DNA of 64,000 bases from Gammaproteobacteria bacterium (GTDB lineage: Bacteria > Pseudomonadota > Gammaproteobacteria > JBCCGL01), in the NCBI GenBank assembly GCA_965277715.1, contig OZ255836.1:3360001-3424000 (forward strand), given 5' to 3'. Of the stretch, positions 17,911 through 46,219 are shown in pieces. Under the pieces are notes generated by a model. It was not told the DNA's origin. It made no database searches and saw only the letters and a list, made by a program, of their open reading frames with translations. Position 1 is the first letter of the stretch. The number at the start of each line of letters is the position of its first letter. The position numbers and the translations under genes were made by a program.

Positions 17911-17977
17911 TGAACGCTAAAAAATGAATGAACGATTAAAAAATTGTTGAATTTAACTGCGGGTCCATATATGACCC
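17911..17977 (+). mobile_element. orphan right end of the IS110/IS1111 element
   Basis: 17911-17978 matches 49515-49582 at 67/68 positions. Confidence 0.75.
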
Positions 17978-19537
17978 CAATGGCACTAAGTTAAGCGGTT
18001 TTAGCGGGTAAAATAAACGAAAAAATAACTGTAATAAACCCAATAAAAAAGGCTGAAATGTTATAATTTTGTATGAAAAATACAACCTTATTTCTACCCG
18101 GATTCAACATCCAAACACTCCGCAAAACACCCCGTTCAGCCATTCAAATCTTGCACGATAAGATAGCAAAAATACGTCACAAATCACTGAGTGAACTACC
18201 TGTTTTTCTTGGCGATATTATACCCACGAATATTCTTAAACCGAATGATTTTGGTGTGAATAGTCGTCGACGTATTTTCAGTAAAGAAAATACTTTCTGG
18301 TTGTTTTTTTCACAAATAATGAACGCCGATGGTGGCTGTAAAGAAGTCGTTAGACAACTGCAAAATGTCGCCCACAACCAAGGCATTCCCATACCTTCAT
18401 CATCCACCTCCGCCTATTGCCAAGCACGTAAAAAACTACCCATGGACGATCTTAAAAACGTATTTTCAGGGACGTGTCGATTATCGCCACCTCAACCCAA
18501 AGCGCTCCAAGGTCGACCGGTTATCGTTGCCGATGGGACAGGCCTATCCATGCCCGATACGCCCGCGAATCAACAAACTTACCCACAACCGAAATCACAA
18601 AAACAGGGATGCGGATTTCCTCAAGCACGGCTTTTAGCTTGTTTTAATCTTTATAGCGGTTTAATTCTGAGCTATGCACTAGGAAATAAAAAAAGTCATG
18701 AGCTAAGACTTTTAGAAGAACAATGGGATACCTTCAATGAAGGTGACATTTTCTTAGGTGATAAAGGTTTTTGCAGCTTCTACGATATTGACTGCCTCTC
18801 TCGACGAACGGTTGACAGTGTCGTTACATTGGCGCGGAGAACGCCCAGCACTGCCTCCCAGGCCAAAAAGAAGATAGCCGATAATGACCTTCATATTGAA
18901 TGGCAAAAACCTAAACACACAAAAGCGACCCGTTACACAAAAGAGCAGCATAGCGACCTTCCAAAGACCTTAACTTTACGACAAATACACGTCAGTATTG
19001 TACGAAAAGGATTTAGGACGAACCATTTTTATATCATCACGACACTACTTGATGCTCAGCAATATCCCGCTATAGAAATTATCGACCTCTATGCACAGCG
19101 CTGGAATGTGGAACTGTATTTTCGCAATATTAAAACCACCATGGGTATGGATATATTACGCTGTAAAACACCTGATATGGTTCGTAAGGAAATCATCATG
19201 CACATGATTGTTTACAACACGATCAGGCACATCATGTGTGTCGCTTCATACCGACATGACACACCGGTTGATCGGCTAAGTCTTAAAGGTGTTTTGCAAA
19301 CACTCCGACAAAGCACTTCATCACTTGGTAGTGGGCAGAGTCCAGCACAAAAAAGACGGCAATATCTTGATTATTTATATGCAGCGATTGCGGATGATCG
19401 TGTGCTTCATCGACCTTTTAGATTTGAACCAAGAGTGGTAAAAAGGCGACCTAAACCACGGGCATTAATGACTCGACCAAGGAACGTTTTAAAAACTGAA
19501 TATTGGCAAGCTAAAGCGGCTTAACTTAGTGCCATTG
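17978..19537 (+). mobile_element. complete IS4-family element (IS4-a)
   Basis: 19-bp perfect IR CAATGGCACTAAGTTAAGC; 11-bp TSD ATATATGACCC (17967-17977, 19538-19548). Confidence 0.92.
18073..19524 (+). CDS. IS4-family DDE transposase
   Basis: VADGT, LGDKGF, YAQRWNVELYFRNIK (YREK motif), EPRVVKRRPK. Confidence 0.93.
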   Translation: MKNTTLFLPGFNIQTLRKTPRSAIQILHDKIAKIRHKSLSELPVFLGDIIPTNILKPNDFGVNSRRRIFSKENTFWLFFSQIMNADGGCKEVVRQLQNVAHNQGIPIPSSSTSAYCQARKKLPMDDLKNVFSGTCRLSPPQPKALQGRPVIVADGTGLSMPDTPANQQTYPQPKSQKQGCGFPQARLLACFNLYSGLILSYALGNKKSHELRLLEEQWDTFNEGDIFLGDKGFCSFYDIDCLSRRTVDSVVTLARRTPSTASQAKKKIADNDLHIEWQKPKHTKATRYTKEQHSDLPKTLTLRQIHVSIVRKGFRTNHFYIITTLLDAQQYPAIEIIDLYAQRWNVELYFRNIKTTMGMDILRCKTPDMVRKEIIMHMIVYNTIRHIMCVASYRHDTPVDRLSLKGVLQTLRQSTSSLGSGQSPAQKRRQYLDYLYAAIADDRVLHRPFRFEPRVVKRRPKPRALMTRPRNVLKTEYWQAKAA

Positions 19538-19557
19538 ATATATGACCCCCTTTTTTT

Positions 19558-19659
19558 CCGGTTCATTATGTGGTAGAAAGCGTTTTCGTATTCTATGTGC
19601 TGAGGCCTTGACATCGGTTGGTGTTGGTACAGTCTATACTAAATAACTAGCCTGACCCC
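19558..19659 (-). mobile_element. terminal fragment of the Y1 TIR element
   Basis: Matches 17803-17903 including the AATAACTAGCCTGACCCC end. Confidence 0.75.
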
Positions 19660-19677
19660 CTTTTCCGACCTACGCCA

Positions 19678-20137
19678 TATAAAAACGACAATGAAGATGC
19701 ACACTTTCCGTTGTAAGACGCCAGAAATGGTTGAGAAGGAAATGTGGGTGCACATATTAGCTTACAACCTTATTCGCTTATTAATGGCGCAATCTGCCTT
19801 ACTAGTGGACATACTGCCTCGACAGATAAGTTTTAAGCATACGTTACAAATTTGGGTAGCGTATCGTTATCAGAAAGGCGGTAGCCCTCTGGGTAGTGAT
19901 AAGGTGTTGGCGCTATGTGCGTTGATTGCAGAAAACTGTGTGGGTAATCGACCGGGGCGTATTGAACCAAGAGTGGTTAAACGAAGGCCCAAACCGTATC
20001 CTTTATTGATGCAGCCAAGGGACGTGGCCAGAAGTGTTGTTAAAAAATATGGCCATCCCAAAAAACAGAAATAGGTCATTTACAATGAAAGTACTTCCAT
20101 ATTTTTCATGTACTTAGAGCTTAAGGAAGTGCCATTC
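19678..20137 (+). pseudogene. 3' fragment of a second IS4-family element (IS4-b)
   Basis: RCKTPEMVEKE..EPRVVKRRPK (ORF 19691-20074); right IR CTTAAGGAAGTGCCATTC ends at 20137. Confidence 0.82.
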
Positions 20138-20340
20138 AGGTCATACCCATAAATTTGGCTATGAATTCAGAAGTAATTACCTTTAGATGTGTTTCTCAAA
20201 ATGCAAGACAGAGCATATTATTTAAGCAAAAATTTGAAAGAGATGAATCTTCATCTATAGGCTGGAAACCTGTTTGGAATGACAGAGTAGAAAAAGCCAT
20301 ATCCTCACTTGAAGGGTATAGCAGGTATTAGGAACTAATT

Positions 20341-20559
20341 ATGAGCATTAATTTTGATAAAGAGGAAATTGATATTCCGTGTGAGGGATGTAAAAGAAAA
20401 AACAAGAAAACAATTGGTTGGATAAAAAGAAATAAACAACTAAATTGTACGTGTGGTGCAATAATAAATTTAGAAACATCTCAATTTACAAGAGAGTTAC
20501 AGAAAATTGAAAAATCATTTTTAGACCTTGAAAAAATATTTAAAGGACTTGGGAAATAA
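20341..20559 (+). CDS. small zinc-ribbon protein (CxxC...CxC), probable cassette gene
   Basis: IPCEGC...LNCTCG; AT-rich; followed by attC left half GCATAACAAAGCACTC. Confidence 0.65.
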   Translation: MSINFDKEEIDIPCEGCKRKNKKTIGWIKRNKQLNCTCGAIINLETSQFTRELQKIEKSFLDLEKIFKGLGK

Positions 20560-20579
20560 AAAGCATAACAAAGCACTCC

Positions 20580-20722
20580 CTAGGCGACTATACAGAATGG
20601 CTTGTAGCAAACGCCCTAAGTCTAGAGTTAGAGAGCAATTCTAAAGCTGGGTATGATGGTGTTTGTAAAAATGGTGTTCGTGTCCAAATAAAAGGACGGC
20701 GAGTAACAAAAAATGGTTCTTC
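20580..20722 (+). pseudogene. fragment of a PD-(D/E)XK-like nuclease gene
   Basis: Reads LGDYTEWLVANALSLELESNSKAGYDGVCKNGVRVQIKGRR (E..D..QxK) with no start. Confidence 0.45.
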
Positions 20723-20754
20723 CCCGATTATTGTGAAGCCACTGGTTCCATATC

Positions 20755-20858
20755 CCCCTGTGTCAGGCTAGTTGTTCCTCTCCCTAAATTGGGATTCAAT
20801 AAGTTTTTACAGGAGGCAAAAAGAGAGTGACATGGGTTATCCAATAGAAAGAAAGGCC
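20755..20858 (+). mobile_element. left-end fragment of the IS3-family element
   Basis: Diverged reverse-complement match to ~52360-52463 (IR through start of orfA, YPIERKA). Confidence 0.75.
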
Positions 20859-21016
20859 CCTGTGTGTCAACCTCACCTCAAGCCACTATGATTTAAGATA
20901 ACATCTAAATCAGGGCAGATATCAAGAGTGAGAACAATGCCAAAACCTATATCAGATAAACCCCAGCCAGAGTCATGTGAGGCCAAGCCTGACCCGACAC
21001 GGGAGAAAAAGCTTAC
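20857..21016 (+). mobile_element. left-end fragment of a second IS3-like element
   Basis: CCCCTGTGTGTCAA end, then MPKPISDKPQPESCEAKPDPTREK cut by the Y1 TIR. Confidence 0.45.
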
Positions 21017-21976
21017 GGGGTCAGGCCAGTTATTCACTGTTCAATTGACTTTCAATCTGGTACATCATCTCATAGAACTCTCCGGTGTCTAACTGCTTTC
21101 TGATATAGGCTATTGCGCTCGATACACCACCAGGATGACTTAGACCGAAAATAGTGAGTAATCGCTTTTAGTGACATACCGCTAAACCGCTGACAGTAAT
21201 ACATCGCCAGTTTACAGGGAATGTTCACACTGTCTCCCTTGCCTTGGCTGAACAAAATACTGCTTTCGCTCACCCGGCAACAACTTGCCACAGTGCTTAC
21301 TATCAAGTGGCTGGCCAACTTTTCCCGCAACTGTGGGTGCACATCAAGGCCACTCTGGCTTTCTTTGTGTTCGGCCAAGCATAAGCGAAAAACTTTGTTG
21401 TCTAACACAGTCGAGACGTTATTTTTGCCGTAAAATCGTTGTATATCCTCATCAACCCCTTGATCTACATAATCTACGCAGCGTTGATAGCTGTTTCGCG
21501 CCGGTAAACAGGCATAAACGTGATTGCGGCATAACCAAGTGAGACTCGATGCCTTTCCTATATAAGCGGGGTAACGAGACCAGGGATAGCTCTCTAGCGA
21601 TTGAACCAGTGGCCGTTTGGTTTCAAGGGTTTCTATGAATATAGCGAGACAGTGGCAATAGATAGGCGTCTTCATCGACATTCAGGGCCTTAAGCCGTCC
21701 TCTAAACTAGGAGCCATCGGTTTTTTTAAGACGGTTATAACGCTGTGTATAAAGTCCATCGACATGCTGCATGATGCGACTGAGGTTAACATCCGGTGTT
21801 TCCAGCAGTAGGTGGTGGTGGTTGCCCGTTAGGCAGTAAACTTCGCCATGAAAAATCGCCTTACGCTCCCGACCACGGTTCATTATGTGGTAGAAGGCGT
21901 TTTCGTATTCTATGCGCTGAGGCCTTGGCATCGGTTGGTATTGGTACAGTCTATACTAAATAACTAGCCTGACCCC
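21017..21976 (-). mobile_element. second 960-bp copy of the Y1 TIR element, decayed
   Basis: Colinear with 16944-17903 (offset 4073); same TIRs, deletion and nonsense codon. Confidence 0.87.
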
Positions 21977-22211
21977 CTTTTCTTCTTCATCGATAGCGAA
22001 AAGTAACTACCAAAAAAATAATTGGCATCGTAAACAGAATTTATATTCACTGCATGATATTGAATATAATAATTTGAATGACGCAATTAATAAACACTGC
22101 AAGACTGATTTTGATACAAATTCAAACTTTAAAAGACTGAGTGAATTTATCGCTATAACTAGAGAGTCGGCACAAGTTTCTATTGGGAACTGGCAGCATG
22201 CGTTAAAAGAC

Positions 22212-22289
22212 TGCTAACAAGGCCATAAAATTCGCTCCCTACAGTCGCCGGACGCTCGCAAGCTCGCGCCGTTTATGGCGGCGTTATGT
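22212..22289 (+). other. attC site
   Basis: TGCTAAC AAGGCCATAAA ... TTTATGGCGGC GTTATGT, 78 bp, after a 5'-truncated AT-rich ORF. Confidence 0.85.
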
Positions 22290-22302
22290 GTAGAAATTAA
22301 TA

Positions 22303-22608
22303 ATGAGCAAAGAATCAATATTTATAATAAGTCCATTTATTTTTGGACTCATGCTTTTAAGTATTAGCCTTTATGACCTGCATCAATTTGATGTGGGTGG
22401 TATAGCGGTTACTGAGATGCTGCGAAGAGAAATGCCATTTTTTGTTCTCGGTATTTTGAGTAGCTTTTGTTTGTTTGTAAAATCAATATATTGGCTTTGG
22501 ACGAGATGCTGGATTAAATCATTCGTTTCTGTGTTTAGCATTCTTTCATTTTTTGTTTTATTTGCAGTAGGCGGGTCATTGGGGGCTGCTTATCTTAATG
22601 CAACTTAG
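22303..22608 (+). CDS. integron cassette: small membrane protein
   Basis: Three hydrophobic segments; begins after GTTATGT and is followed by complementary R'' ACATAAC (22617-22623). Confidence 0.75.
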   Translation: MSKESIFIISPFIFGLMLLSISLYDLHQFDVGGIAVTEMLRREMPFFVLGILSSFCLFVKSIYWLWTRCWIKSFVSVFSILSFFVLFAVGGSLGAAYLNAT

Positions 22609-22645
22609 CAGGGTACACATAACAAACCGTTGAAGTCGGACAGTC

Positions 22646-22738
22646 ACGGTGTTTGTCAAGGTAGTTGTCCGTTTTACTATGCTACTTGCTTTTCAATTCC
22701 ATTGTGCTTTTGTCTCATGGCCAAGCCTTCCCTTTCCG
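22646..22738 (-). mobile_element. right-end fragment of the IS3-family element, interrupting an attC
   Basis: Near-identical to 50785-50877; follows the attC left half at 22617-22645. Confidence 0.8.
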
Positions 22739-22746
22739 AGTCTTAT

Positions 22747-23493
22747 GGGGTCAGGCCAGAATGGCACTTCTTTAAGCTGTAAGTATTTGAAAGTATTGGT
22801 ATTACGTGCTTGGTTCAGATAACTTGGCATATGGTTCTTGAAAGCAATATTTGTAAAACTATCCCGGTTATCATTGGCGGCAACTTTCAAAATATCATTT
22901 TTGTTTCTTAGAAAGAATAAATAAACTCTTTACTATCAGTTGCTTACGCCTTAAGGAAGTGCCATTCGGGTCAGGCCAGTTATTCACTGTTCAATTGACT
23001 TTCAATCTGGTACATCATCTCATAGAACTCTCCGGTGTCTAACTGCTTCCTGATATAGGCTATTGCGCTCAATACACCACCAGGATGACTTAGACCGAAA
23101 ATAGTGAGTAATCGCTTTTAGTGACATACCGCTAAACCGCTGGCAGTAATACATCGCCAGTTTACGGGGAATGTTCACACTGCCTCCCTTGCCTTGACTG
23201 AACAAAATACTGCTTTCGCTCACCCGGCAACAACTTGCCACAGTGCTTATTATCAAGTGGCTGGCCAACTTTTCCCGCAACTGTGGGCGCACATCAAGGC
23301 CACTCCGGAAGCGATCTGCAGCTTCGGCCAATGTAGTGAGAAACGCTTGGTAGTAAGCTTCGCCATGAAAAATCGCCTTACGCTCCCGACAACGGTTGGT
23401 TATGTGGTAGAAGGCGTTTTCGTATTCTATGCGCTGAGGCCTTGGCATCGGTTGATATCGACACAATCTATACTAAATAACTAGCCTGCCCCC
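22747..23493 (-). mobile_element. internally deleted Y1 TIR element with the MITE in its left TIR
   Basis: ORF 23020-23466 fuses N-terminus to C-terminal part; right TIR variant AATAACTAGCCTGCCCCC. Confidence 0.82.
22759..22967. mobile_element. 209-bp MITE with IS4-b-type ends
   Basis: IR GAATGGCACTTCTTTAAG / CTTAAGGAAGTGCCATTC; 11-bp TSD GGGTCAGGCCA (22748-22758, 22968-22978). Confidence 0.88.
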
Positions 23494-23661
23494 TTTTATT
23501 CACTCTACCCACTACACGCCCAACATTGAATTGGTTCACATATAAGGCGATCTAAGCCAAACCAACTGGAGCGCCTGTTTCATCCAGGGTCGGGCTGATG
23601 TAACGGGCAATGTTCGCTATACTGGCTGTTTGTGCTAATAGGGTGGTCAGGCGTTATTTAA

Positions 23662-24894
23662 ATGCATGAGCAAAAAGGTAGTGAGCCGGACGGTGTTTTG
23701 TTAGGCCGTATTTTACTCGGCGTAAGTGGCGGTATCGCTGCGTATAAAAGCCCAGACTTAGTGCGCCGCCTGCGTGATATAGGCGCCGAGGTGCGTGTTG
23801 TGATGACACCCGCTGCGCAGGCATTCGTTACTCCACTGACGTTCCAGGCCACTTCAGGCCACCCCGTGCACAGTGAACTGCTGGATGCAGCGGCAGAAGC
23901 AGGTATGGGGCATATCGAGCTGGCCCGCTGGGCGGATGCTGTGCTGATTGCCCCGGCTTCTGCCAACCGTATTGCGGCGCTGGCACAGGGCTTCGCCGAT
24001 GATTTATTGAGCACCGTTTGCCTGGCCAGTGATGCACCCTTGTTTATCGCCCCCGCGATGAATCAGGCGATGTGGAAACACCCGGCAGTACAGGAGAATA
24101 TCGCTATTTTACGCCGACGTGGCGCCATCATCCTCGGCCCAGGTGAGGGCGGGCAGGCCTGCGGCGATACGGGTGCAGGGCGTATGCTGGAGCCTATCGC
24201 GCTGCGTGACGCACTGCGCGATCAGTTGCACGCCCCCCATTCCAACGCACTGTGCAATAAGCGTGTGCTGCTGAGCGCCGGGCCTACGCGGGAGGCGCTC
24301 GATCCCGTGCGCTATTTAAGTAATCACAGCTCCGGCAAGATGGGGTTTGCACTGGCCGCTGCCGCGCAGCGTGCGGGGGCGTCGGTGACGCTGATTGCCG
24401 GCCCTGTGCAGCAGGATACACCGGCAAATGTCGAGCGTATCGACGTGGTTTCCGCCCAGGATATGCACGCCGCAGTGATGCAGCACGCGGCCAGTGCCGA
24501 TATATTTATCAGCGTTGCGGCGGTTGCCGATTACCGGGTGCGTGAACCGCAGCCTGAAAAAATCAAAAAGTCACAACACAACATGGTGCTGGCGTTGACG
24601 CGCAACCCGGATATTCTCGCCGGGGTTGCCGCGCTCGATAATAAGCCTTTTTGTGTCGGCTTCGCCGCCGAGACACACCGCGTGGAGGACTACGCGGCGG
24701 AAAAAATGCAACGCAAAAACCTGGATATGATCGCCGCCAATCAGGTGGGGGTTGTCGGGAGTGGCTTTGCCAGTGACAACAATAGCCTGCTTGTTTTAGC
24801 GCGTGATGGCAGCCGGGCAGTACTGGCAGATGCCCCCAAAACGCGTATTGCCGCACAGCTGATCGAACTGATTGCCAAACACACCACACACTAA
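23662..24894 (+). CDS. coaBC: phosphopantothenoylcysteine decarboxylase/ligase
   Basis: [49 protein letters not shown]. Confidence 0.97.
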
Positions 24895-24901
24895 GCGACT
24901 T

Positions 24902-25357
24902 ATGAAATCCATTGATGTAAAAATTCTCGATCCGCGCCTGGGTGCGGAAATTCCTTTGCCGGAATACGCAACAACGGGTTCCGCCGGGCTGGATTTGCGC
25001 GCCTGCCTGGACAGTGAGCTGGTGTTGGAGGCGGGACAAACGCATTTGATTCCCACTGGAATGGCAATTTATATCGCCGATCCGGCCTACGCTGCGATCA
25101 TCCTGCCACGCTCGGGGCTTGGTCATAAGCACGGTATTGTGCTCGGTAACCTGGTTGGGTTGATCGATGCCGATTACCAGGGGCAGTTGTTTGTCTCCTG
25201 CTGGAACCGTGGTGATGCCGCTTTTACGGTTGAAGTGGGTGAGAAAATTGCCCAGTTGGTTATTGTACCTGTGGTGCAGGCGCAGTTTAACCTCGTCGAC
25301 AGTTTTGACAGTAGCGGGCGTGGAGGCCGTGGTTTTGGCTCCTCGGGCCGTCAATGA
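24902..25357 (+). CDS. dut: dUTP pyrophosphatase
   Basis: [32 protein letters not shown]. Confidence 0.97.
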
Positions 25358-25397
25358 GCGTTATGTACGTCTAACTTACTGATTTAAGGAGGTTTAT

Positions 25398-26771
25398 ATG
25401 CAAATTTCACCCGCTATTTTTCGCGCCTATGATATTCGCGGTGTTGTCACTGAATCACTTACCCCGGATGTCGTTCGCGAGATTGGCCGGGCGTTTGCCA
25501 GCGAATGCCAGCAGCGTGGACAGCAAACGGTGGTACTGGCACGCGATGGCCGCCTGTCCGGCCCGGCGCTGATTGGCGCACTGACAGAAGGTTTGCTGTC
25601 GACTGGCTGCGATGTGATCGATATTGGCATGGTGCCAACCCCGGTACTGTATTTTGCCACCCACAGTCTGAAAACCGGCACGGGTATTATGGTCACCGGT
25701 AGTCACAATCCACCCGAGTACAATGGCCTGAAAATGATGATTGGGGGTGATCCGCTATCGGGTGATGGTATCACCGGGCTGTATCGGCGGCTCGTCAGTG
25801 GTGATCTCGCTTGTGGCCAAGGTGTCCGTAGCGAACAATTGATTGCCGATAGCTATTTGCAACGCATTCTCGGTGATATTGCGCTCGGCAAAAAAATGCG
25901 TATTGGCATCGATTGTGGCAATGGTGTTGCCGGTGCAGTAGCCCCTGAATTATTCCGGCAACTCGGCTGCGAGGTGGTGGAATTTTTCTGTGAGGTCGAC
26001 GGTACATTTCCCAATCACCACCCCGATCCCAGCAAAGTTGAAAACATGCAGGATTTGATCGCCGCAGTGAAAAGCCAGCAACTCGATATCGGCCTGGCAT
26101 TTGATGGTGACGGTGACCGTGTAGGGGTGATCGACAATGACGGCAACCTGATCTGGCCAGATCGGCAGATGATTTTATTTGCAGAGGATATTCTTGGCCG
26201 CAACCCCGGTGCGCGTATTATCTACGATGTAAAGTGCTCACGGTTACTGCCGCAGGCCATCCGTGCAATGGGAGGGGAGCCGGAAATGTGGAAAACCGGG
26301 CATTCATTTATAAAGGCGCGTATCAAGGAAACGGGTGCACTGCTGGGTGGTGAGATGAGCGGCCATATTTTTTTTAAGGAGCGCTGGTATGGTTTTGATG
26401 ATGCCTTGTATGCGGGCGCCCGGTTGTTAGAGATTTTGTCACACCGCGATGTGTCAGCCGAGGCAATTTTTTCAGCGATACCCAATAGTATTAACACCCC
26501 TGAATTGAACATTGCCTTTGCCGAAGGGGAACACCATCGGTTTATTCAACGGTTTGTCCAGCGGGCCACATTTGATGGGGCGCAACTGACGACTATCGAC
26601 GGAGTGCGGGCAGATTTTGACGATGGCTGGGGCCTGGTGCGTGCATCCAATACCACACCTGTACTGGTTATCCGTTTTGAGGCGGATACGCCGCTGGCGC
26701 TTGAGCGGATCCAGGCGGTTTTTCGTGAACAAATGTTAAAGCTGGCGCCTGGGTTAGCGTTGCCGTTTTGA
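25398..26771 (+). CDS. algC: phosphomannomutase/phosphoglucomutase
   Basis: FRAYDIRG, TGSHNP, DGDGDR, GEMSGH, RASNT. Confidence 0.93.
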   Translation: MQISPAIFRAYDIRGVVTESLTPDVVREIGRAFASECQQRGQQTVVLARDGRLSGPALIGALTEGLLSTGCDVIDIGMVPTPVLYFATHSLKTGTGIMVTGSHNPPEYNGLKMMIGGDPLSGDGITGLYRRLVSGDLACGQGVRSEQLIADSYLQRILGDIALGKKMRIGIDCGNGVAGAVAPELFRQLGCEVVEFFCEVDGTFPNHHPDPSKVENMQDLIAAVKSQQLDIGLAFDGDGDRVGVIDNDGNLIWPDRQMILFAEDILGRNPGARIIYDVKCSRLLPQAIRAMGGEPEMWKTGHSFIKARIKETGALLGGEMSGHIFFKERWYGFDDALYAGARLLEILSHRDVSAEAIFSAIPNSINTPELNIAFAEGEHHRFIQRFVQRATFDGAQLTTIDGVRADFDDGWGLVRASNTTPVLVIRFEADTPLALERIQAVFREQMLKLAPGLALPF

Positions 26772-26841
26772 TGCGCGGTATTTTCCGGCGCTCCCTAATG
26801 AGGGGCGGAAAGCCACCGTGCCTGTGAGGTTTTATAGCCCT

Positions 26842-28062: not shown

Positions 28063-28215
28063 AGTAACCCCCGAATAATCTTTGCCTGTAGAGGGTGTCA
28101 GAAAACGACTGCGCCCGGTGATGCGGTGTTGGAGCGCTTTGGCTCACCTTTGCACGCGATGTTTTCCGATACCTCTGTGTGTGCCAATAAATGTTTGCTA
28201 ATACACCGTCTACCA

Positions 28216-28731: not shown

Positions 28732-28993
28732 AAGTTTATCTGGGTGTCAGTAATAAGGGGTGTCGAAGCAGAACTGCCTAATGATATTCAAACGAGTGAG
28801 CCTATCAATCGGGTTGTCAGGTTCAAAAACGGTCGGTGGTAGACAGAGAATAGTAGGGTATAGGGCAAAGGTTACAATAGCGTGTTCAAAAGATGGTGTA
28901 ATTATACCCTCTCGCCATTGGCGGACGCTACCGTTAGGTTGGTAGGGTGTAAGCCCAGATATAAACAAGCTGTATTATGAGGAAACAAGATTG

Positions 28994-29599: not shown

Positions 29600-29621
29600 C
29601 GCGTTGATTATTGAGGTACGT

Positions 29622-35134: not shown

Positions 35135-35198
35135 AGTCGTCGGCAACTGCTCCTGCGTTGCTCTATCTCCAATGTATCCATACAGTCGTCGGCAACTG
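35135..35198 (+). repeat. 49-bp intergenic repeat unit with partial tandem copies
   Basis: Unit 35141-35189 preceded by AGTCGT and followed by CGGCAACTG. Confidence 0.6.
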
Positions 35199-35285
35199 TT
35201 TCTGTGGAAAACAGGCCGACGCTAATTACTGATAGCTGATGCATGAGATTGTGCCCCGGATGTATTGTCTGCTCTATTGTCCTTT

Positions 35286-37646: not shown

Positions 37647-37727
37647 TGGATTGTTTAAGCCCTGGACAGATAGATGGAGGTGACTGGTTTGGGTTTCACG
37701 CAGGCATTGGCGGCTATACCTCTTCGC

Positions 37728-38453: not shown

Positions 38454-38742
38454 AACATTATTTCAATTTGGTATAAATTGGTTTTAAATATACACTGCAA
38501 CTTTTTTCCTGTCCAATTTTTTTACGCGTACATTTTTTGCAAATTTAGATAACTAACTGATTGTTATATTAAATAATTAAAAATTTAATTGATATCTGCT
38601 ATTGATAGTGTAAGGGTTGTGGCCAATTTTATTGGTCTATATGGTTTTTTTTGGTTTACTGTGGTACAAAGCATGGGTATGGAGGCAGTGCGCTGTCGCC
38701 ACCCTATTCAAAAGCAAGAATTATACTCCTGGAGGTTTATAT

Positions 38743-40212
38743 ATGACTGATTTACAAGCTCACGTCGAGGCGCCTGGTCGTGCCGACCTGGTTAAACAGG
38801 TCGCTGAAAAGATAAAAGAAACCGGTGTCGATTATATCTATTACCAGTTTGTCTCGGTCACTGGCCGTATCGTCGGTAAGGGTATCCCCGCCGCACACTG
38901 GGAGCGCCTGGCGGAGAAAGGGTTTCAGCTGGTTTACGGCTCAACCGCAAACCTGTTTATCGACCGCCACGGCGATTACATTGGCTATGGCCCTGAGGCG
39001 TCTGAACTGGTCGGTATCCCAGATCCGGAAACCTTTGTCCAGTTGCCCTGGGACAAACGCATTGGCCGTGTATTCTGTACCCTGTTTCGCAACCGTGAAG
39101 AGCGTGAAAACCCAGGTGGTGCGCTGACCTCCGACTGCCGGGGTAACCTGCGCCGTATTCACAACGATTTTCAGGCCAAGCATGGTCTCGATATGCGTTG
39201 TGGTACCGAACCGGAAATGATGTGGCTGAAACGTGGCGCCGATGGCAAACCCGACGGTGGTGTCACCAAGCCAAACTGCTACCACATCGATCAGTTTGAA
39301 GAGTTGCGCCCCACCTTTATGAAAGTGATCGAATATTCCCAGCAAATGGGCCTCGATATTATTCAAGGCGACCACGAAGACGCCCCCGGTCAGCTTGAGC
39401 TGAACACCCAGTTTGATGATGTGCTGCGCAACGCAGACAGACTCACCACCTACCGCCAGATTTGTGCACAAGTGGCGCGTGAAGACGGCCTGATTGCCTG
39501 CTTTATGTCCAAGCCATTTATGGGTGTCTCGGCCTCTGGCTGTCACCACAACATGTCTTTGTGGCGTGGCGGTGAGGATGTGGTGAATAGATTGGGCATG
39601 GATTCTCTGCCGGGTATGGACGGTGCATTCAGCTACCGGGTAGGGGGTGAAAACACCTTTATGCCTGATCCCGCCATCGACGCCCGTGCGCCAGGCCCCA
39701 TTGGTCTGCAATCGATTGGTGGCGTTATCAAACACCTGGGTGCACTCACCTCGATTGGTTCATCCACGGTTAACTCCTATCGCCGACTGTGGGACACCGG
39801 TTTCTGGGCGCCGATTTTTGCCGACTGGGGCTACCAGAACCGCACGTGTGCGCTGCGCGTTTCGGCACCGGGGCGTTTTGAGTACCGCTCGGTGGATTCA
39901 ATGGTCAACCCCTACCTGATGGGCGCTGCGCTATTGAAATCGTTTGACGATGGTATCGACAACAACCTCGACCCCGGTGAGGCGGAGGAGCGCAACATCT
40001 ACGCGGCGATGGATGCGGGCAAGCAGGTGAAAAAACTGCCGATGTCCCTGGGTGAGGCGCTTGAAGAGCTGCGTAACGATGAAGTGGTTAAATCCTCAAT
40101 GCCGGGTGAGATGTACAAAGTGTACGAACACTACAAACGGGATGAGTGGGAGAAATACAACGCCACCGTCACCGATTGGGATATGGAAATGTACATGGAT
40201 TGCCTGCCATAG
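38743..40212 (+). CDS. glutamine synthetase-like gamma-glutamylamide ligase
   Basis: GTEPE, DHEDAPGQLE, SGCHHN, NSYRRL, NRTCALR, EYRSVD; GGAGG RBS; first gene before the glxBCD-like genes. Confidence 0.85.
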   Translation: MTDLQAHVEAPGRADLVKQVAEKIKETGVDYIYYQFVSVTGRIVGKGIPAAHWERLAEKGFQLVYGSTANLFIDRHGDYIGYGPEASELVGIPDPETFVQLPWDKRIGRVFCTLFRNREERENPGGALTSDCRGNLRRIHNDFQAKHGLDMRCGTEPEMMWLKRGADGKPDGGVTKPNCYHIDQFEELRPTFMKVIEYSQQMGLDIIQGDHEDAPGQLELNTQFDDVLRNADRLTTYRQICAQVAREDGLIACFMSKPFMGVSASGCHHNMSLWRGGEDVVNRLGMDSLPGMDGAFSYRVGGENTFMPDPAIDARAPGPIGLQSIGGVIKHLGALTSIGSSTVNSYRRLWDTGFWAPIFADWGYQNRTCALRVSAPGRFEYRSVDSMVNPYLMGAALLKSFDDGIDNNLDPGEAEERNIYAAMDAGKQVKKLPMSLGEALEELRNDEVVKSSMPGEMYKVYEHYKRDEWEKYNATVTDWDMEMYMDCLP

Positions 40213-40384
40213 GTGGTTCATAGGTAACAGAGCAGGAGCGCACCCACGTGTGCACTCTGGTCAGGGTAGACGCCAATAAAATTAAGTGTAAAAAACGTAG
40301 GGCAGGTAGAAAGCCTGCCCTCGCTGGTGTGCCGGTGCGTTATACACCGGCTAACTCCATTTTCTTTGAGTAAGGGGAAATATT

Positions 40385-41329
40385 ATGTGTGGTATTGCTG
40401 GACTTATCTGGAAAGGTGGGAGCAGCAGCAACATCGGTGGTGAAATGACCCAAATGCTTCAGGCACTGAAGCACCGTGGGCCGGATTCGACCGGTTTTGC
40501 GCTCTATGGAAAACCCGACGCAGACGCAGACGTTCACGTTATGCGTTTTAAAGTCGCCGAGCAGGAAGACCTGCGCACCGGCTTTGATATTCATCAACAA
40601 ATCAAAGACCGCAAAGGTGTCGTCGATGCACGCCTGGCCGATATGGGCGCTGAGGTCACGCAACGTGAAGAAGCCACCGAATACGCCTATCGCTACCATT
40701 TTAAATTTGGTGGTGATTTGAAACGGCTGATCGATTTTATCGAAGACATTGACGGTGCGGAAATTCTGTCTGTTGGTAAAGGTCTGGAACTGGTCAAAGA
40801 CCTTGGCGACGCCGCTGTGGTGTCTGAACAGTATGGGCTGGGTAACTTCGAGGGCACGCACGCCATTGGGCACACCCGTATGGCCACCGAGTCGGATGTC
40901 GATATCCGCTCGGCGCATCCCTACTGGGCCTACCCATTTAACGACGTATCTGTTGTGCACAACGGCCAGTTGACCAACTACTGGAGCTTCCGCCGCGACC
41001 TCGAACGCCGGGGGCATCGCTTCATGTCTAATTGCGACTCTGAGCTGATCGCCGTGTATATCGCTGACCGCATGGACCGTGGTGAAGACCTCGAGGAATC
41101 GATGCGCCGCTCGGTGGAAGAGCTGGACGGTGTTTTCACCTATCTGGTCGCCACCAGTGACAAGCTCGGCATGGCCAAAGACGTTATGTCTGCCAAGCCG
41201 ATGGTGTTGTACGAAAGTGATGAATTTGTTGGCCTGGCTTCTGAAGAAGTGGCTATCCGTAGTATTTTCCCGCGTGAAATCGATACGTGGGACCCGTATC
41301 AAGGGGAGGTAAAAGTATGGGCAGCGTAA
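40385..41329 (+). CDS. class II glutamine amidotransferase (MgsA/GlxB-like)
   Basis: MCGIAG, HRGPDS, GHTRMATES, HNG, DSE. Confidence 0.88.
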   Translation: MCGIAGLIWKGGSSSNIGGEMTQMLQALKHRGPDSTGFALYGKPDADADVHVMRFKVAEQEDLRTGFDIHQQIKDRKGVVDARLADMGAEVTQREEATEYAYRYHFKFGGDLKRLIDFIEDIDGAEILSVGKGLELVKDLGDAAVVSEQYGLGNFEGTHAIGHTRMATESDVDIRSAHPYWAYPFNDVSVVHNGQLTNYWSFRRDLERRGHRFMSNCDSELIAVYIADRMDRGEDLEESMRRSVEELDGVFTYLVATSDKLGMAKDVMSAKPMVLYESDEFVGLASEEVAIRSIFPREIDTWDPYQGEVKVWAA

Positions 41330-42153
41330 GTAAATCGCACGATCTGGGGCTGCACGAAGAACAACTCGCCGGGCGTACCCAGCAGCGTTTTTTCTCGGCC
41401 TCAGAAGAGGAAAACTTCACCTATCCGTGGTCGTATGAAGTCGACTATGCCAAACAGGCGGCATTTGACGCGGCGGATATGAAAATTGACGACATCAACC
41501 TGAAAATCCGCGACCTGATGAAAGCGGGCCACGGCACCATTACCGTGCAGAACCCGCGTGCCAAACACTCCCTGGGGGTCGGCATTCTCAACCGCCTCGA
41601 CCTGCGCTTTGAAGGCAGCCTGGGCTATTTTGGCTGTGGCCTTGTCGATGGCCCGAACATCAGCATCTCTGGCCGGGTCGGTTGGTCTTGTGCAGAAAAC
41701 ATGATGGCTGGCACCGTCGTCATCGAAAAAAATGCCGGTTCTCTATTTGGCGCGGCGATTCGCGGCGGTGATCTGGTGTGTAAAGGCCAGGCGGGTGCGC
41801 GTGTCGGCATCGACCAGAAGGGCGGTACGATTATCGTCGGGGGCAGTGTCGGCGCCTTCACCGGCTTTATGATGCAGCGCGGGCGCATGATCATCCTCGG
41901 CGACGCGGGTGACAACCTCGGTGACTCGATGTACGACGGCACCATCTACGTGGCAGGTAAAATCGCCAGTTTGGGCGTTGACTGTGTCGAGGCCGAATTG
42001 ACCGACCTCGACAAAAAATACATCGCGGCGAAGCTTGAGCAATACGGTATGCAGGCACCCAACGGTATCGACAATATCGTCAAGCACGTTTCCGGCAAAC
42101 AGCTGTGGAACTACGACAACCTCGAACCCAATGAAAAGAAACTGGTGCTTTAG
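41317..42153 (+). CDS. GXGXG-domain protein (MgsB/GlxC-like)
   Basis: Repeated Gly-rich beta-helix motifs (AENMMAG, GDSMYDG). Confidence 0.88.
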   Translation: MGSVSKSHDLGLHEEQLAGRTQQRFFSASEEENFTYPWSYEVDYAKQAAFDAADMKIDDINLKIRDLMKAGHGTITVQNPRAKHSLGVGILNRLDLRFEGSLGYFGCGLVDGPNISISGRVGWSCAENMMAGTVVIEKNAGSLFGAAIRGGDLVCKGQAGARVGIDQKGGTIIVGGSVGAFTGFMMQRGRMIILGDAGDNLGDSMYDGTIYVAGKIASLGVDCVEAELTDLDKKYIAAKLEQYGMQAPNGIDNIVKHVSGKQLWNYDNLEPNEKKLVL

Positions 42154-42168
42154 TTTCCGGAGAATGAC

Positions 42169-43515
42169 ATGTCTGTAAATACACCAAAACGCGATACCAA
42201 CCGGCTTGGCAACAGCTTTATCTTCCCGCCGGAGGTAATGGACGATATCCACGTTAAGGCCGAGCTGGGCCGCTACCGTATGCGTGGTTTTTCACTGTTC
42301 AAAAAAATCCCCACCTGGGACGACCTGACCTTTATGCCAGGCACCCTGACCCGCTTCGTGATTGAGGGTTACCGGGAAAAGTGCCTAACCAAAACGGTCA
42401 TTGGCCCCAATGCCAAACAACCGCTCGAACTGGATATCCCCGTCTACATCACCGGCATGAGCTTCGGTGCGCTGAGCTATGAAGCGAAAACCGCGCTGGC
42501 GCGTGGTGCGACAATGGCCGGTACCGCCACCTGCTCGGGTGAGGGCGGGATGATCCCCGATGAGCGTCGCTACTCATCGAAATGGTTCTACCAGTGTATC
42601 CAGTCCCGCTATGGCTTTAATCCCAACCACCTGCGTTTGGCTGATGCGGTTGAATTCTTTATCGGCCAGGGGTGTAAAGTCGGCCTCGGTGGCCACCTGA
42701 TGGGTCAAAAAGTCACCGACCAGGTAGCCGAAATGCGCTCTCTGCCTGCGGGTATCGACCAACGCTCACCGGCACGCCACCCAGACTGGATGGGGCCAGA
42801 TGACCTGGCACTGAAAATCCAGGAAATCCGCCAGGCGACCGATGGGCAAATCCCGATTCAGCTAAAGCTGGGTGCGGCGCGTGTCTACGATGACGTGCGT
42901 ATGGCCGCCAAAACCGGCCCCGATTCCATCTATATCGATGGCATGGAAGGCGGCACCGGTGCTGGCCCTCACCTGGCGACAGAAGATACCGGCGTACCCG
43001 GCATTGCGGCGATTCGCCAGGCGCGTCAGGCGCTGGACGATGTCGGCATGTCCGGTGAAATCACGCTGATCTATGCGGGCGGCATCCGCAACGGTGCCGA
43101 CGTGGCCAAGGCCATTGCCCTGGGCGCAGACGCGGTGGCCATTGGTCACTCGGCACTGATCGCGCTAAACTGCAACAAAGCCATCCCCGAAGCGGATTTT
43201 GAAAAAGAAATGGGTGTTGAAGCGGGCTATTGCTACCACTGCCACACAGGCCGTTGCCCGGTTGGCGTTGCCACCCAGGATGTCGAATTGCGCAAGCGCC
43301 TCGACCCGGATGCCGCCGCTGAGCGGGTGTACAACTTCCTGCACACGCTGACCATGGAGGCGCAACTATTTGCTCGCGCCTGTGGTAAAACCAACATCCA
43401 CTCGCTGGAACCTGAAGACCTGGCCGCACTGACCATGGAAGCCTCGGCTTGCGCGCAAGTGCCCATGGCGGGTTCTCAACACACCGTCGGTCGCCCCGAC
43501 ATGACACGTTTCTGA
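42169..43515 (+). CDS. FMN-binding glutamate synthase family protein (MgsC/GlxD-like)
   Basis: GMSFGALS, GEGG, GQGCKVGLGGHL, DGMEGGTGA, CYHCHTGRCPVGVATQD. Confidence 0.9.
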   Translation: MSVNTPKRDTNRLGNSFIFPPEVMDDIHVKAELGRYRMRGFSLFKKIPTWDDLTFMPGTLTRFVIEGYREKCLTKTVIGPNAKQPLELDIPVYITGMSFGALSYEAKTALARGATMAGTATCSGEGGMIPDERRYSSKWFYQCIQSRYGFNPNHLRLADAVEFFIGQGCKVGLGGHLMGQKVTDQVAEMRSLPAGIDQRSPARHPDWMGPDDLALKIQEIRQATDGQIPIQLKLGAARVYDDVRMAAKTGPDSIYIDGMEGGTGAGPHLATEDTGVPGIAAIRQARQALDDVGMSGEITLIYAGGIRNGADVAKAIALGADAVAIGHSALIALNCNKAIPEADFEKEMGVEAGYCYHCHTGRCPVGVATQDVELRKRLDPDAAAERVYNFLHTLTMEAQLFARACGKTNIHSLEPEDLAALTMEASACAQVPMAGSQHTVGRPDMTRF

Positions 43516-43527
43516 GGAGGCATTGAA

Positions 43528-43917
43528 ATGAGCGAACAAAACATCGATCACTTCATCAAAACCGAAGGTCTGGACAGCACCCGCGAACAGGAAATCGGCC
43601 AGCACATTGGCTACCGTTACGACGTTAATCTAGTGCCGGATATGGATCGCTGCCCACCCTTTCTGAAAAAATACATGGAGATTATGGGTTGGCGTGATTT
43701 GAACTGGCTGGAAGATGTACACATGGGGTACGAAGAAGGTAACGCCGCCGTTTTCGACCGCAACATCAACGGCTGGGTCACCATCCCCGACGACATCGAA
43801 CTGCCGGACAACCAACAGGATCGCGATATGATTGCGCGTGAACTGCTGATTAAGTTTCAAATGTCCAGCAACCACCCGATGGTCGATTTGCGCAAAGCTT
43901 ACGAAAAGTTTGCCTGA
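43528..43917 (+). CDS. hypothetical protein, last gene of the operon
   Basis: GAGGAGG RBS; followed by hairpin GGCCGGATA..TATCCGGCC. Confidence 0.75.
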   Translation: MSEQNIDHFIKTEGLDSTREQEIGQHIGYRYDVNLVPDMDRCPPFLKKYMEIMGWRDLNWLEDVHMGYEEGNAAVFDRNINGWVTIPDDIELPDNQQDRDMIARELLIKFQMSSNHPMVDLRKAYEKFA

Positions 43918-44009
43918 CCAGTTGATCGGCATATCAAAACAATAAAGCCCTGGGCCGGATAAACTATCCGGCCTATTCAATTTAAGCTGAACCTGACAAC
44001 GCCCTTCTC

Positions 44010-44537
44010 ATGGCTGAAACACCCACCCCTATAGAGCAGTTTATGTACTGGCAGTGCCGTATCCGCCAGGAATCGGTACGCAAACTTGATGGCCGCCCAA
44101 CGGCGGGTATGCGCCCAACCGTATTGCGGGTTGATACCCGTGAATCGCTCGGTACGATTAATGTATTGATTACCAAACGTGAACCCGCCGACTACACCAG
44201 CCAATTTCGCCATACGGTTAAAAAGACACAAGACCCAACTGAACGTATAAAAAGCGGTTTGCAGTTATTGGCAGAAGCTTACTACCAGCAACCTAAAGGG
44301 TTTTCCACCGAGCTGGTGGCGCTGTTTGCATTGGACTCTGAACTGGCGGGTAATTTACTGAGCACCGGTGAATGTAACCTGGCCTTTGCACAAGACACCC
44401 AAAAACACCGCCTGCACTGCACCGTGCGTGAAGTGCCTGAGGATGACCCGGCCCACCAGGCCATCTACTGGCACAACCATTTATTTAATCCGCGTATGCC
44501 GGGACGTGTGCAGGTGTTGGGGTTTACGCCGCAATAG
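44010..44537 (+). CDS. hypothetical protein
   Basis: 175-aa ORF with ATG start, longest ORF in this interval. Confidence 0.65.
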   Translation: MAETPTPIEQFMYWQCRIRQESVRKLDGRPTAGMRPTVLRVDTRESLGTINVLITKREPADYTSQFRHTVKKTQDPTERIKSGLQLLAEAYYQQPKGFSTELVALFALDSELAGNLLSTGECNLAFAQDTQKHRLHCTVREVPEDDPAHQAIYWHNHLFNPRMPGRVQVLGFTPQ

Positions 44538-44686
44538 AATGCATGTAAAGCGTGACCTCTGGTGAAAGTAGGTTCAGCACTTAGTCTGATTCAGCTAATG
44601 CTTTTCAAGCCGGTTAGCCTGAGCGATTTCGACATAAGTATCCAATCGGGTTTCCAGCTTAATAACTCATTAAAGGGGTCAGTACC

Positions 44687-45325
44687 CAATGGCACTAAGT
44701 TAAGCCGCTTTAGCTTGCCAATATTCAGTTTTTAAAACGTTCCGTGGTCGAGTCATTAATGCCCGTGGTTTAGGTCGCCTTTTTACCACTCTTGGTTCAA
44801 ATCTAAAAGGTCGATGAAGCACACGATCATCCGCAATCGCTGCATATAAATAATCAAGATATTGCCGTCTTTTTTGTGCTGGACTCTGCCCACTACCAAG
44901 TGATGAAGTGCTTTGTCGGAGTGTTTGCAAAACACCTTTAAGACTTAGCCGATCAACCGGTGTGTCATGTCGGTTCGTACAATGCTGACGTGTATTTGTC
45001 GTAAAGTTAAGGTCTTTGGAAGTTCGTTATGCTGCTCTTTTGTGTAACGGGTCGCTTTTGTGTGTTTAGGTTTTTGCCATTCGATATGAAGGTCATTATC
45101 GGCTATCTTCTTTTTGGCCTGGGAGGCAGTGCTGGGCGTTCTCCGCGCCAATGTAACGACACTGTCCTGTCAACCGTTCGTCGAGAGAGGCAGTCAATAT
45201 CGTAGAAGCTGCAAAAACCTTTATCACCTAAGAAAATGTCACTTTCATTGAAGGTATCCCATTGTTCTTCTAAAAGTCTTAGCTCATAACTTTTTTTATT
45301 TCCCAGTGCATAGCTCAGAATTAAA
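44687..45325 (-). mobile_element. truncated, internally deleted copy of IS4-a
   Basis: IR CAATGGCACTAAGTTAAG at 44687; matches the 3' half of 17978-19537 with an internal deletion. Confidence 0.87.
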
Positions 45326-45335
45326 CTACCTTAAA

Positions 45336-46117
45336 GGGGTCAGTACCCTTTATTTATTATCTTGTTTAATATAGGGCCTCCCTCTCTTCGAATGCCCCAC
45401 TTTCAGACTTAAAAGGCTCTCTATCTCATGCTTAAACCGATCACTGCCCAGGGGAACACCTGTTTGAGTACATTGACGAATTTTCTCAACTAGGCTCTCA
45501 TCCATCACTTCCGTAAAGAGAGACCTGTAAGCCAGCTGCCTCTCTGCTTTTTTATTGTCTAACGCCAAGTAGAGAGGGTGAGGAGTGACCAGTGGATCAT
45601 CATGCCCGAGTCCATTGGCATGATAACTTGACCATCGGTAATCCTGGCAGCGCTCGACCATTAGTGCTCTAACCGGGTTCGTTTCTATATATCGACAGCA
45701 AGCCAATAAATACGGCTCTGTATCAACACTACTGGCCTTAAAACGCCCTTCCCACAAAGTGCCACTCCTCCCATATTTATGATTAAAGTAGGGGACATAA
45801 CGCCGCCCCACTGTCTGAGATAGTTTCGATAAGTGGCTGGTATCACTCGCACTCACCAACAAGTGCAAATGATTCGACATTAAGACATAGCTATGAATTC
45901 GGCACGCTAGCTGTTCTGCCGCCTCCTGTAGCCAGCGCTTATAGATAAAGAAATCCTCATCTTCAGCAAAGACGACCTGGCGACTGTTCCCTCTAAGGAT
46001 CATATGGATTGGTACATCGGGGATAAAAAAGCGCGGTTTTCTTGGCATTGTGTTGAGGCTTCAAGAGCGAATGAAAACAGAATTTTATACAAAAATCCTA
46101 TAAAAGGGTACGACCCC
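45336..46117 (-). mobile_element. TIR-flanked Y1/HUH element with intact gene
   Basis: Ends GGGGTCAGTACCCTTTA and TAAAAGGGTACGACCCC. Confidence 0.8.
45350..46048 (-). CDS. Y1/HUH (RAYT-like) tyrosine transposase
   Basis: MPRKPR..HMILRGN, YVLMSNHLHLL (HUH), LWEGRFK, RYIETNPVRA, YRWSSY. Confidence 0.92.
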   Translation of the reverse strand: MPRKPRFFIPDVPIHMILRGNSRQVVFAEDEDFFIYKRWLQEAAEQLACRIHSYVLMSNHLHLLVSASDTSHLSKLSQTVGRRYVPYFNHKYGRSGTLWEGRFKASSVDTEPYLLACCRYIETNPVRALMVERCQDYRWSSYHANGLGHDDPLVTPHPLYLALDNKKAERQLAYRSLFTEVMDESLVEKIRQCTQTGVPLGSDRFKHEIESLLSLKVGHSKRGRPYIKQDNK

Positions 46118-46126
46118 TTTATTTTT

Positions 46127-46205
46127 CAAAAAACAGAAATAGGTCATTTACAATGAAAGTACTTCCATATTTTTCATGTACTTAGAGCTTAAGGAAGTGC
46201 CATTC
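46127..46205 (+). mobile_element. 79-bp right-end fragment of IS4-b
   Basis: Identical to 20059-20137. Confidence 0.85.
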
Positions 46206-46219
46206 ACCTGAGACCCCTT

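Follow-up and report, generated by a model that had tools for sequence, protein, structure and literature searches.

IS4-type elements in the window

The stretch of DNA analysed here, called the window throughout, covers 64,000 bp of a gammaproteobacterial genome (GTDB lineage JBCCGL01; assembly GCA_965277715.1, contig OZ255836.1, positions 3,360,001 to 3,424,000). It carries two different insertion sequences (ISs) of the IS4 family, IS4-a and IS4-b, and a miniature inverted-repeat transposable element (MITE) with IS4-b-type ends, all of them inserted at one fixed register relative to the hexamer GGGGTC. The elements, their target-site duplications (TSDs) and flanks are as follows (a slash marks the edge of the 11-bp target; ORF, open reading frame):

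17978-19537, + strand: IS4-a, complete, 1560 bp; transposase ORF 18073-19524, 483 amino acids
17967-17977 (left) and 19538-19548 (right): IS4-a TSD ATATATGACCC, an exact direct repeat
44687-45325, - strand: partial IS4-a, ~640 bp of the right end, internal deletions, truncated at IS4-a position 18659
44675-44686: flank of the partial IS4-a, G/GGGTCAGTACC
19666-20137, + strand: IS4-b, 3' part only (last ~136 transposase codons and right end)
46127-46205, + strand: IS4-b right-end fragment, 79 bp, 96% identical to 20059-20148
46206-46217: flank of the 79-bp IS4-b fragment, ACCTGAGACCC/C
22759-22967: MITE, 209 bp, IS4-b-type ends GAATGGCACTTC
22748-22758 and 22968-22978: MITE TSD GGGTCAGGCCA, preceded by G22747

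IS4-a is bounded by 19-bp inverted ends (CAATGGCACTAAGTTAAGC) with AATG at positions 2-5 and TTA at positions 14-16. Its transposase scored 205.6 bits against NCBIfam NF033592 (IS4 family; cut-off 115), 92.5 bits against Pfam PF01609 (DDE_Tnp_1) and 27.9 bits against PF13006 (Nterm_IS4; cut-off 25), and the translation contains the YREK motif, Y(2)R(3)E(6)K (YAQRWNVELYFRNIK). De Palmenaer, Siguier and Mahillon (2008) describe the IS4 subgroup as having ends of the form -AATR--------WTW- with a relaxed first base, a length of 1400-1650 bp and direct repeats of 10-13 bp, and call its insertion specificity 'spectacular' (PMC2266710). The end signature, size and repeat length of IS4-a all fall within this definition; with its single-ORF DDE transposase, YREK motif, ends, 1560-bp length and 11-bp TSD, IS4-a has the characters of the IS4 subgroup. 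The nearest transposases in a plasmid collection were only 38% identical (Nostoc).

IS4-b is known here from 3' pieces, and no full copy was found. The longer piece matched NF033592 (E = 2e-7), and the ends of IS4-b and the MITE (GAATGGCACTTCCTTAAGC) also match the IS4-subgroup signature. Since the tail of its transposase is 42% identical to the C-terminus of IS4-a (131 aligned residues), IS4-b is a different IS, probably of the same subgroup; the preliminary description of this DNA was right to treat the two as distinct.

A fixed insertion register at GGGGTC

IS4-type ends were defined by the pattern NAATGGCACT...TTAAG. The string AATGGCACT occurred 8 times, against 0.6 expected; 7 occurrences are IS4-type ends, and the one at 3018 was rejected as an end because the TTAAG part of the pattern is absent. 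The second G of GGGGTC lies exactly 11 bases before four of the seven ends, and before a fifth there is a degenerate version. Read toward the ends, these five flanks are:

IS4-a right end: G/GGGTCATATAT
MITE end: G/GGGTCAGGCCA
End at 44687: G/GGGTCAGTACC
End at 46205: G/GGGTCTCAGGT
End at 20137: T/GGGTATGACCT

The last is the degenerate case (IS4-b flank at 20138-20148, AGGTCATACCC, with GGGTA on the reverse strand).

GGGGTC occurs at 38 sites on the two strands of the window, a density of about 3 per 10,000 positions. An IS4-type end follows after exactly 11 bases at 4 of the 38 sites, and at any other offset at none of them. By our own arithmetic, the probability that four of five independent insertions would fall into this register by chance is <1e-11, which excludes chance as the source of the register. 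The remaining bases of the duplicated target differ from site to site, so the insertions in the window are separate, independent events. Both elements that retain two ends, IS4-a and the MITE, are flanked by a perfect 11-bp direct repeat. Coordinates and flanks, checked at all sites, thus upheld the initial claims that two IS4-type elements and a MITE sit at one fixed register by GGGGTC and that in four cases the 11-bp target starts at its second G while the other bases vary.

IS4-a was also present in eight public runs of four studies, some of them labelled sponge metagenome, and junctions were taken from contigs of four runs aligned to the element. On the left side the flanks were GGATCAGTTCC, GCATCATAGTG, TGGCTATCACC, GCGTTATACCC and GGGTATCTTTG, and further GCATCAGAACC (2 contigs, agreement 0.67) and GGGTCAAACGA (3 contigs, agreement 0.63); on the right side they were TAATTAACCCC and CGTTATACCCT. 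Flanks GGGTCAAACGA, GGGTATCTTTG and GGATCAGTTCC are in register, but IS4-a copies outside the window, in contigs of this and related organisms, match the motif only partially (e.g. GGATCAGTTCC, GCATCATAGTG and GCGTTATACCC). With flanks so mixed, the preference is a consensus and no strict rule. For IS4-b-type ends, one contig junction (AAAAG/GGGTCAGGTAT) is in register, and in another contig an IS4-b/MITE end lies immediately next to ATATATGACCC, the duplication of IS4-a, which means that two different elements used the same 11 bp. The junction of the partial IS4-a at 44687 recurs in contigs of two runs (X6 and X7).

In all five window cases GGGTC stands on the right-end side of the IS. GGGTC-like half-sites were also found on the left-end side of IS4-a in contigs, so the uniform orientation in the window is not general. 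A fixed orientation was not upheld in other genomes either: among the 22 of 146 external ends (see below) that tblastn had given a side, GGGTC and GACCC were found at 2 and 3 of 11 left ends and at 3 and 3 of 11 right ends.

Target motif of the lineage in other genomes

Using the pattern AATGGCACTNNNTTAAGC, we scanned one genome per species and obtained at least 126 loci, from gamma- and betaproteobacteria, cyanobacteria, the Planctomycetes-Verrucomicrobia-Chlamydiae (PVC) group and others. After removal of identical entries, 146 ends remained among the matches listed. Their flanks have as consensus the palindrome GGGTCWGACCC, with G at -12 and an A-rich stretch from -19 to -14. GGGTC occupied TSD positions 1-5 at 16 of the 146 ends, GACCC positions 7-11 at 23, and one or the other was present at 37; in the other 25 registers of the 30-base flank each pentamer occurred 0-1 times. 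GGG at positions 1-3 or CCC at positions 9-11 was found at 73 of 146 ends. The consensus therefore has the form of a palindromic target centred on a staggered cut (GGG N5 CCC, 11 bp).

A metagenome scan with an IS4-b-type pattern contributed six more ends (6 loci); a metagenome scan with a 28-base end pattern specific for IS4-a gave 0 matches. In the resulting set of 150 ends, at least 7 of 10 consensus positions matched at 55 ends in the true register, against 0-6 ends in eight shifted registers. The motif is common to sublineages with differing end variants (TAC, 46 ends; AAG, 24; C:ACC, 8; TCC, 6). In 12 external elements both ends were found to carry the same 9-13 bp direct repeat without mismatch; its length was 11 bp in 10 of them and 10 bp in 2.

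We considered whether the motif might be part of the inverted repeat of the IS. This was ruled out, because non-palindromic flanks are repeated directly and not inversely at the two ends; the motif is therefore target DNA, outside the element.

Prediction of the window sites

A log-odds matrix was built from the 146 foreign ends only and slid over both strands of the window (127,964 positions). Six of the seven window ends ranked 4, 11, 25, 41, 51 and 63 of 127,964, within the top 0.05%; the seventh, on the poor half of the IS4-a site, ranked 5393. The two top-scoring sites of the window are both ends of a Y1 element, element B, and many of the top twenty are ends of another, element A. Sequence alone thus predicts landing in Y1 ends, since a matrix from foreign ends puts them highest. 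These targets and their context are:

17911-17978, + strand: IS1111/IS110-like 3'-terminal fragment (IS4-a target), 68 bp, 99% identical to 49515-49582
48376-49582, + strand: IS110-family transposase ORF and 3' non-coding end; ORF 48376-49284, N-terminally short
16944-17903, - strand: element A copy 1, Y1-type, 18-bp terminal inverted repeats GGGGTCAGGC.AGTTATT
21017-21976 and 22747-23493: other copies of element A (~960 bp full length), the latter with the MITE and an internal deletion
16696-16943 and 19561-19659: partial copy and right-end fragment of element A
45333-46124, - strand: element B, with a RAYT-like (REP-associated tyrosine transposase; REP, repetitive extragenic palindrome) Y1 (HUH) gene at 45350-46048, 232 amino acids

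By context, two of the five window insertion sites (22748 and 44676) are Y1-type ends or repeats, one is the IS1111-like end, and two (46206 and 20138) have no recognised context.

The three copies of element A are 95-97% alike. The MITE breaks the left terminal repeat of copy 3, one base inside the element, and intact paralogs of its target are the uninterrupted left ends at 16696, 16944 and 21017. The N-terminal piece of element A has an HUH-like NHHHLLLET and scored 22.5 bits against Pfam Y1_Tnp, just under the cut-off of 23; the C-terminal piece has a DnaA-C-like helix-turn-helix (Bac_DnaA_C, 25-31 bits; cut-off 31.5). In copy 2 the two gene pieces are in different frames. TIRYT-like Y1 elements, with which element A and its 18-bp terminal inverted repeats were compared, consist of a Y1-domain protein bounded by terminal inverted repeats, with no subterminal hairpins.

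Element B is bounded by inverted short palindromes, AAAGGGGTCAGTACCCTTT (45333-45351) and AAAAGGGTACGACCCCTTT. Its gene scored 51 bits against Pfam Y1_Tnp (PF01797; cut-off 23) and 63.5 bits against NCBIfam NF047646 (REP_Tyr_transpos), below the cut-off of 80. A GTAG/CGTC tag is typical of REPs; none was seen at element B. The insertion at 44687 adjoins a copy of the palindrome AAAGGGGTCAGTACCCTTT, and its 11 bases are centred on the palindrome dyad. A 17-bp repeat (TTAAAGGGGTCAGTACC) flanks the IS4-a fragment on both sides in this nest (44.6-46.2 kb), and no single insertion history accounted for the arrangement there.

At 17.9 kb, the IS4-a target is the final 11 bases of the IS1111/IS110-like 3' end. 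The ORF at 48376-49284 scored 82.3 bits against Pfam Transposase_20 and 43.2 bits against DEDD_Tnp_IS110, and the 68-bp fragment matches the sequence 3' of it; there the IS4-a target is present as an unoccupied single copy (49572-49582) within the intact paralogous site 49565-49582. In contigs of four runs the IS1111-like end reads through ...GACCC(C) and is then followed, after 17977/17978, by several differing flanks, so it behaves as the end of a multi-copy element. Because its TSD lies in this end, IS4-a came later than the IS1111-like end, in agreement with the order of arrival first proposed for this site. As a separate observation, in contigs of run X7 the IS4-a right end followed by ATATATGACCCC (window 19538-19550) leads to at least three different downstream sequences, which places IS4-a at the same point of several IS1111-like ends. 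Either the IS1111-like site was hit repeatedly, or IS4-a and the IS1111-like element move together.

Y1 repeats as targets in other genomes

Five genomes that carry the lineage, G001-G005, were taken from the first scan and examined further. At least 7 of 10 consensus positions matched at 30 of the 33 distinct ends in G002 (AAG and TCC variants), 19 of which have exact GGGTC or GACCC; elsewhere such matches were found at 5 of 7 ends in G001, 3 of 4 in G003, 3 of 6 in G004 and 1 of 4 in G005. The targets in G002 are two short palindromic repeats, TTAAAG/GGGTCAGAGCC/CTTTT and AATAG/GGGACAGACCA. When up to 2 mismatches were allowed, the first repeat (AGGGGTCAGAGCCCTT) had 31 matches and its reversed control 1, and several copies of the repeat are split by IS or MITE copies. 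Reading of the sites, with no direct count, gave an estimate of about one-third of G002 repeat copies occupied, and MITE ends were seen in both orientations relative to the asymmetric repeat, which agrees with symmetric recognition.

Both G002 repeats flank Y1 genes 48-52% identical to element B. Upstream of one of these (G002:C110; 52% identical), an IS4-lineage MITE occupies the repeat, and its register is that seen in the window. Y1 homologs were present in all five genomes. GGGGTC or GGGTC lies within 260 bp upstream of 10 of 13 Y1 genes in these genomes, often in tandem, and GACCC or GACCCC lies downstream of six of those Y1 genes by our own count. Of the 126 loci listed by the scan, 5 (4 separate places by our count) have a Y1 gene no more than 2 kb from an IS4-type end.

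Short tandem arrays of GGGGTC units were seen upstream of Y1 genes at L134, L137, L138, L143 and L147 (G001, G002 and G004), for example arrays of a 20-base unit (G002:C85) and a 16-base unit (G002:C87), each repeated six to seven times. In a Gilvimarinus locus (L073, 3380-3690), regular ~28-bp repeats ending in CCTGCGGGGAACGG, resembling a CRISPR array, lie beside a Y1-like fragment and an IS4-lineage end.

Probable sequence-directed targeting and its alternatives

IS4-a, IS4-b and the MITE very probably belong to one IS4-subgroup lineage in which sequence-directed targeting of an 11-bp palindromic motif sets the shared register. In the mechanism that we propose, cut-and-paste DDE elements with ends NAATGGCACT...TTAAGC would be moved by a transposase that captures its target as a symmetric complex and cuts the strands 11 bp apart. 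The preferred site would be (A-rich)-G/GGGTCWGACCC/C-(T-rich), one good half-site being enough. Position 1 of the 11-bp staggered cut would be the second G of GGGGTC, which would account for where the TSD starts. The best motif matches in this genome are the ends or flanking palindromes of the two Y1 (HUH) elements and the IS1111-like 3' end, and this is why different IS4-type elements would share the register there. By analogy with Tn5, Tn10 and IS231A, we infer that recognition is symmetric and dimeric; the transposase alone presumably suffices for it.

Several findings weigh against this reading. The consensus is degenerate, with fewer than 7 of 10 positions matched at 95 of the 150 external ends, and the IS4-a contig flanks GCATCATAGTG, TGGCTATCACC and TAATTAACCCC contain neither GGGTC nor GACCC. 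Four Nostoc ends (L027, L033, L039 and L060) match the motif poorly, and a sublineage with the end variant AGC (10 ends) uses a different target. Under a strictly symmetric model, the uniform orientation in the window has a two-sided chance of ~0.06. The genomes G001-G005 were picked from loci of the first scan and are therefore not independent of it. In addition, the external consensus may itself reflect mainly insertions into a single kind of repeat, so that a preference of the transposase and a targeting of repeats are not cleanly separable.

The AGC-variant ends (L009, L051, L070, L077, L083, L110, L111 and L117) come mainly from planctomycete metagenome-assembled genomes. Their flank consensus is G/GTgtGACCgAC, with a mean match to the main motif of 3.3 of 10, and the element ends are unchanged. 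Apparently, the target preference has shifted in this sublineage.

The preliminary description had gone further and held that these DDE transposases specifically target Y1 ends, by sequence or through a bound protein. Targeting by sequence was supported by the ranks that the foreign-end matrix gives to six of the seven window ends. The specificity for Y1 ends stood in part: Y1 ends are the best-scoring sites in the window and most G002 insertions lie in Y1-flanking repeats, but only two of the five window sites are of Y1 type and the consensus is degenerate across the lineage in many taxa. Judged from the sequences, what the lineage prefers is a degenerate symmetric consensus of its own and not Y1 elements as such. 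It is conceivable, though we rather doubt it, that across gamma- and betaproteobacteria the lineage has specialised on the conserved GGGGTC(A)G-type motif of one HUH Y1 family, the transposase motif having been shaped by those repeats. The GGGGTC or GGGTC upstream of 10 of 13 Y1 genes, the MITE in the repeat beside a relative of element B in G002 and the estimated occupancy of that repeat speak for such a specialisation. Were this true, the repeats of one selfish element would be standing landing pads for another, in a long-lived relation of parasite on parasite.

The transposase might instead read the shape of the DNA (a cruciform, a hairpin, or bent DNA between A- and T-tracts), the bases merely mirroring the repeats in which such shapes occur. 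Many targets are indeed short palindromes with the TSD on the dyad, for example AAAGGGGTCAGTACCCTTT at 45333-45351 and AAAG/GGGTCAGAGCC/CTTT in G002, and of the two arms one is A-rich and the other T-rich. We nevertheless consider recognition of shape unlikely. Insertions in the same register also use sites that are not palindromic (GGGTCAGGCCA in the end of element A, GGGTCTTATAT at L056, and ATATATGACCC, which is off-centre in the IS1111-like palindrome), single positions are informative (T4, C5, G7 and C11), which favours base contacts, and a GGGTC/GACCC stem with a one-base loop cannot form a hairpin.

That a bound Y1 (HUH) protein recruits or positions the IS4 transposase, the register arising from protein-protein contact and not from DNA sequence alone, is very improbable. 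The presence of Y1 homologs in every genome examined, the Y1 genes close to IS4-type ends at a few scan loci and the Y1-flanking position of most G002 insertions would fit such a guide. The same register, however, is found at an end that does not belong to a Y1 element, that of the IS1111-like element, and the element A genes in the window are broken, as in copy 2. A matrix made from foreign sequence alone already ranks the occupied sites among the highest in the window, so a protein guide is not needed. The symmetry of the consensus about the cut is what one expects if a symmetric transposase complex reads the DNA directly.

Random insertion with survival of copies in harmless DNA (mobile-element ends and intergenic repeats) fits the location of the seen sites in repeats, in mobile-element ends or just past a gene end, yet is hardly credible, because selection for harmless places cannot fix a single-base register or a palindromic consensus centred on the TSD.

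Relation to known systems

Sequence-specific insertion of IS4-family elements into palindromic repeats or the ends of other transposons is established behaviour. Hallet et al. are said to have found (1991, 1994) that IS231A prefers the terminal repeats of Tn4430, the ends of another mobile element, and that A/T-rich bent flanks matter. IS231A of Bacillus thuringiensis (IS4 family, IS231 subgroup) has an 11-bp TSD with the motif GGGNNNNNCCC (GGGN5CCC), and palindromic target motifs centred on a staggered cut are common among cut-and-paste transposons (PMC2577343). The lineage described here resembles IS231A in being a DDE, IS4-family lineage with an 11-bp TSD, and GGGTCWGACCC is a more specified version of the IS231A motif. 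It differs in subgroup, the ends of IS231 being CAT... and those here NAATG... (PMC2266710), in host (Bacillus versus proteobacteria and others), and in the inner TC-W-GA, which is conserved as well in the lineage here.

REP targeting is known for ISs of five families (Tobes and Pareja 2006; PMC1525189), and the two cases below come from that paper. All copies of ISRm22 of Sinorhizobium meliloti (IS4 family) lie in REP sequences, inserted at the axis of a palindromic consensus; unlike the elements here, ISRm22 makes 6-bp and not 11-bp direct repeats, and the REP sequence, subgroup (IS4Sa according to PMC2266710) and host differ. ISPpu9 and ISPpu10 of Pseudomonas putida (IS110 family) are dissimilar ISs at the identical position of one REP sequence, and thus a precedent for two different elements in one register. 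They have DEDD recombinases of the IS110 family, in which targets are chosen with a guide RNA, and no 11-bp duplication, so the mechanism is unrelated. Type 1 REP association means that an IS has split a multi-copy repeat and has one half of it on either side. In the window, the MITE splits the end of element A, and the IS4-a at 44687 comes after a copy of the palindrome that bounds element B.

A full-text literature search for AATGGCACT with 'transposase' gave no relevant report, and a search for 'IS4 family' with 'RAYT' gave none judged relevant from titles and abstract openings. Possibly new are the explicit consensus for the lineage and the fact that, in several bacterial classes, it coincides with a conserved motif at the ends of one Y1 family. 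The targeting explains the nested pile-up of mobile elements in this genome, and the target matrix can be used to locate element boundaries, MITEs and insertion hot spots of this widespread but little-described IS4 lineage in metagenome-assembled genomes. Should the link to Y1 repeats hold generally, it would offer a clear example of a selfish element that exploits the repeats made by another.

Other features of Y1 elements and repeats in the window

Three times, at 17903/17911, 19659/19666 and 46120/46127, a right end of Y1 element A or B adjoins a truncated IS: the first keeps the final 68 bp of the IS1111-like element, and the other two keep the final ~470 bp and 79 bp of IS4-b, respectively. 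At its left palindrome, element B adjoins an internal break of IS4-a (45325/45326). This arrangement suggests that Y1 elements insert into other ISs or cause deletions beside them.

Y1 elements of the IS200/IS605 type have a fixed tetranucleotide beside the left end, which is TTAC in IS608. TTAT or TTAC precedes all four left ends of element A (16692-16695, 16940-16943, 21013-21016 and 22743-22746) and recalls that tetranucleotide; a T run follows the right ends.

Two further repeats were noticed. A 96-bp stretch is present at 22646-22741, just left of element A copy 3, and again 28 kb away at 50785-50880 (98% identical). A family of 47-57 bp repeats containing CAACTGTTTCT has three copies, 72-77% alike, at 2091-2157, 12615-12681 and 35189-35235.

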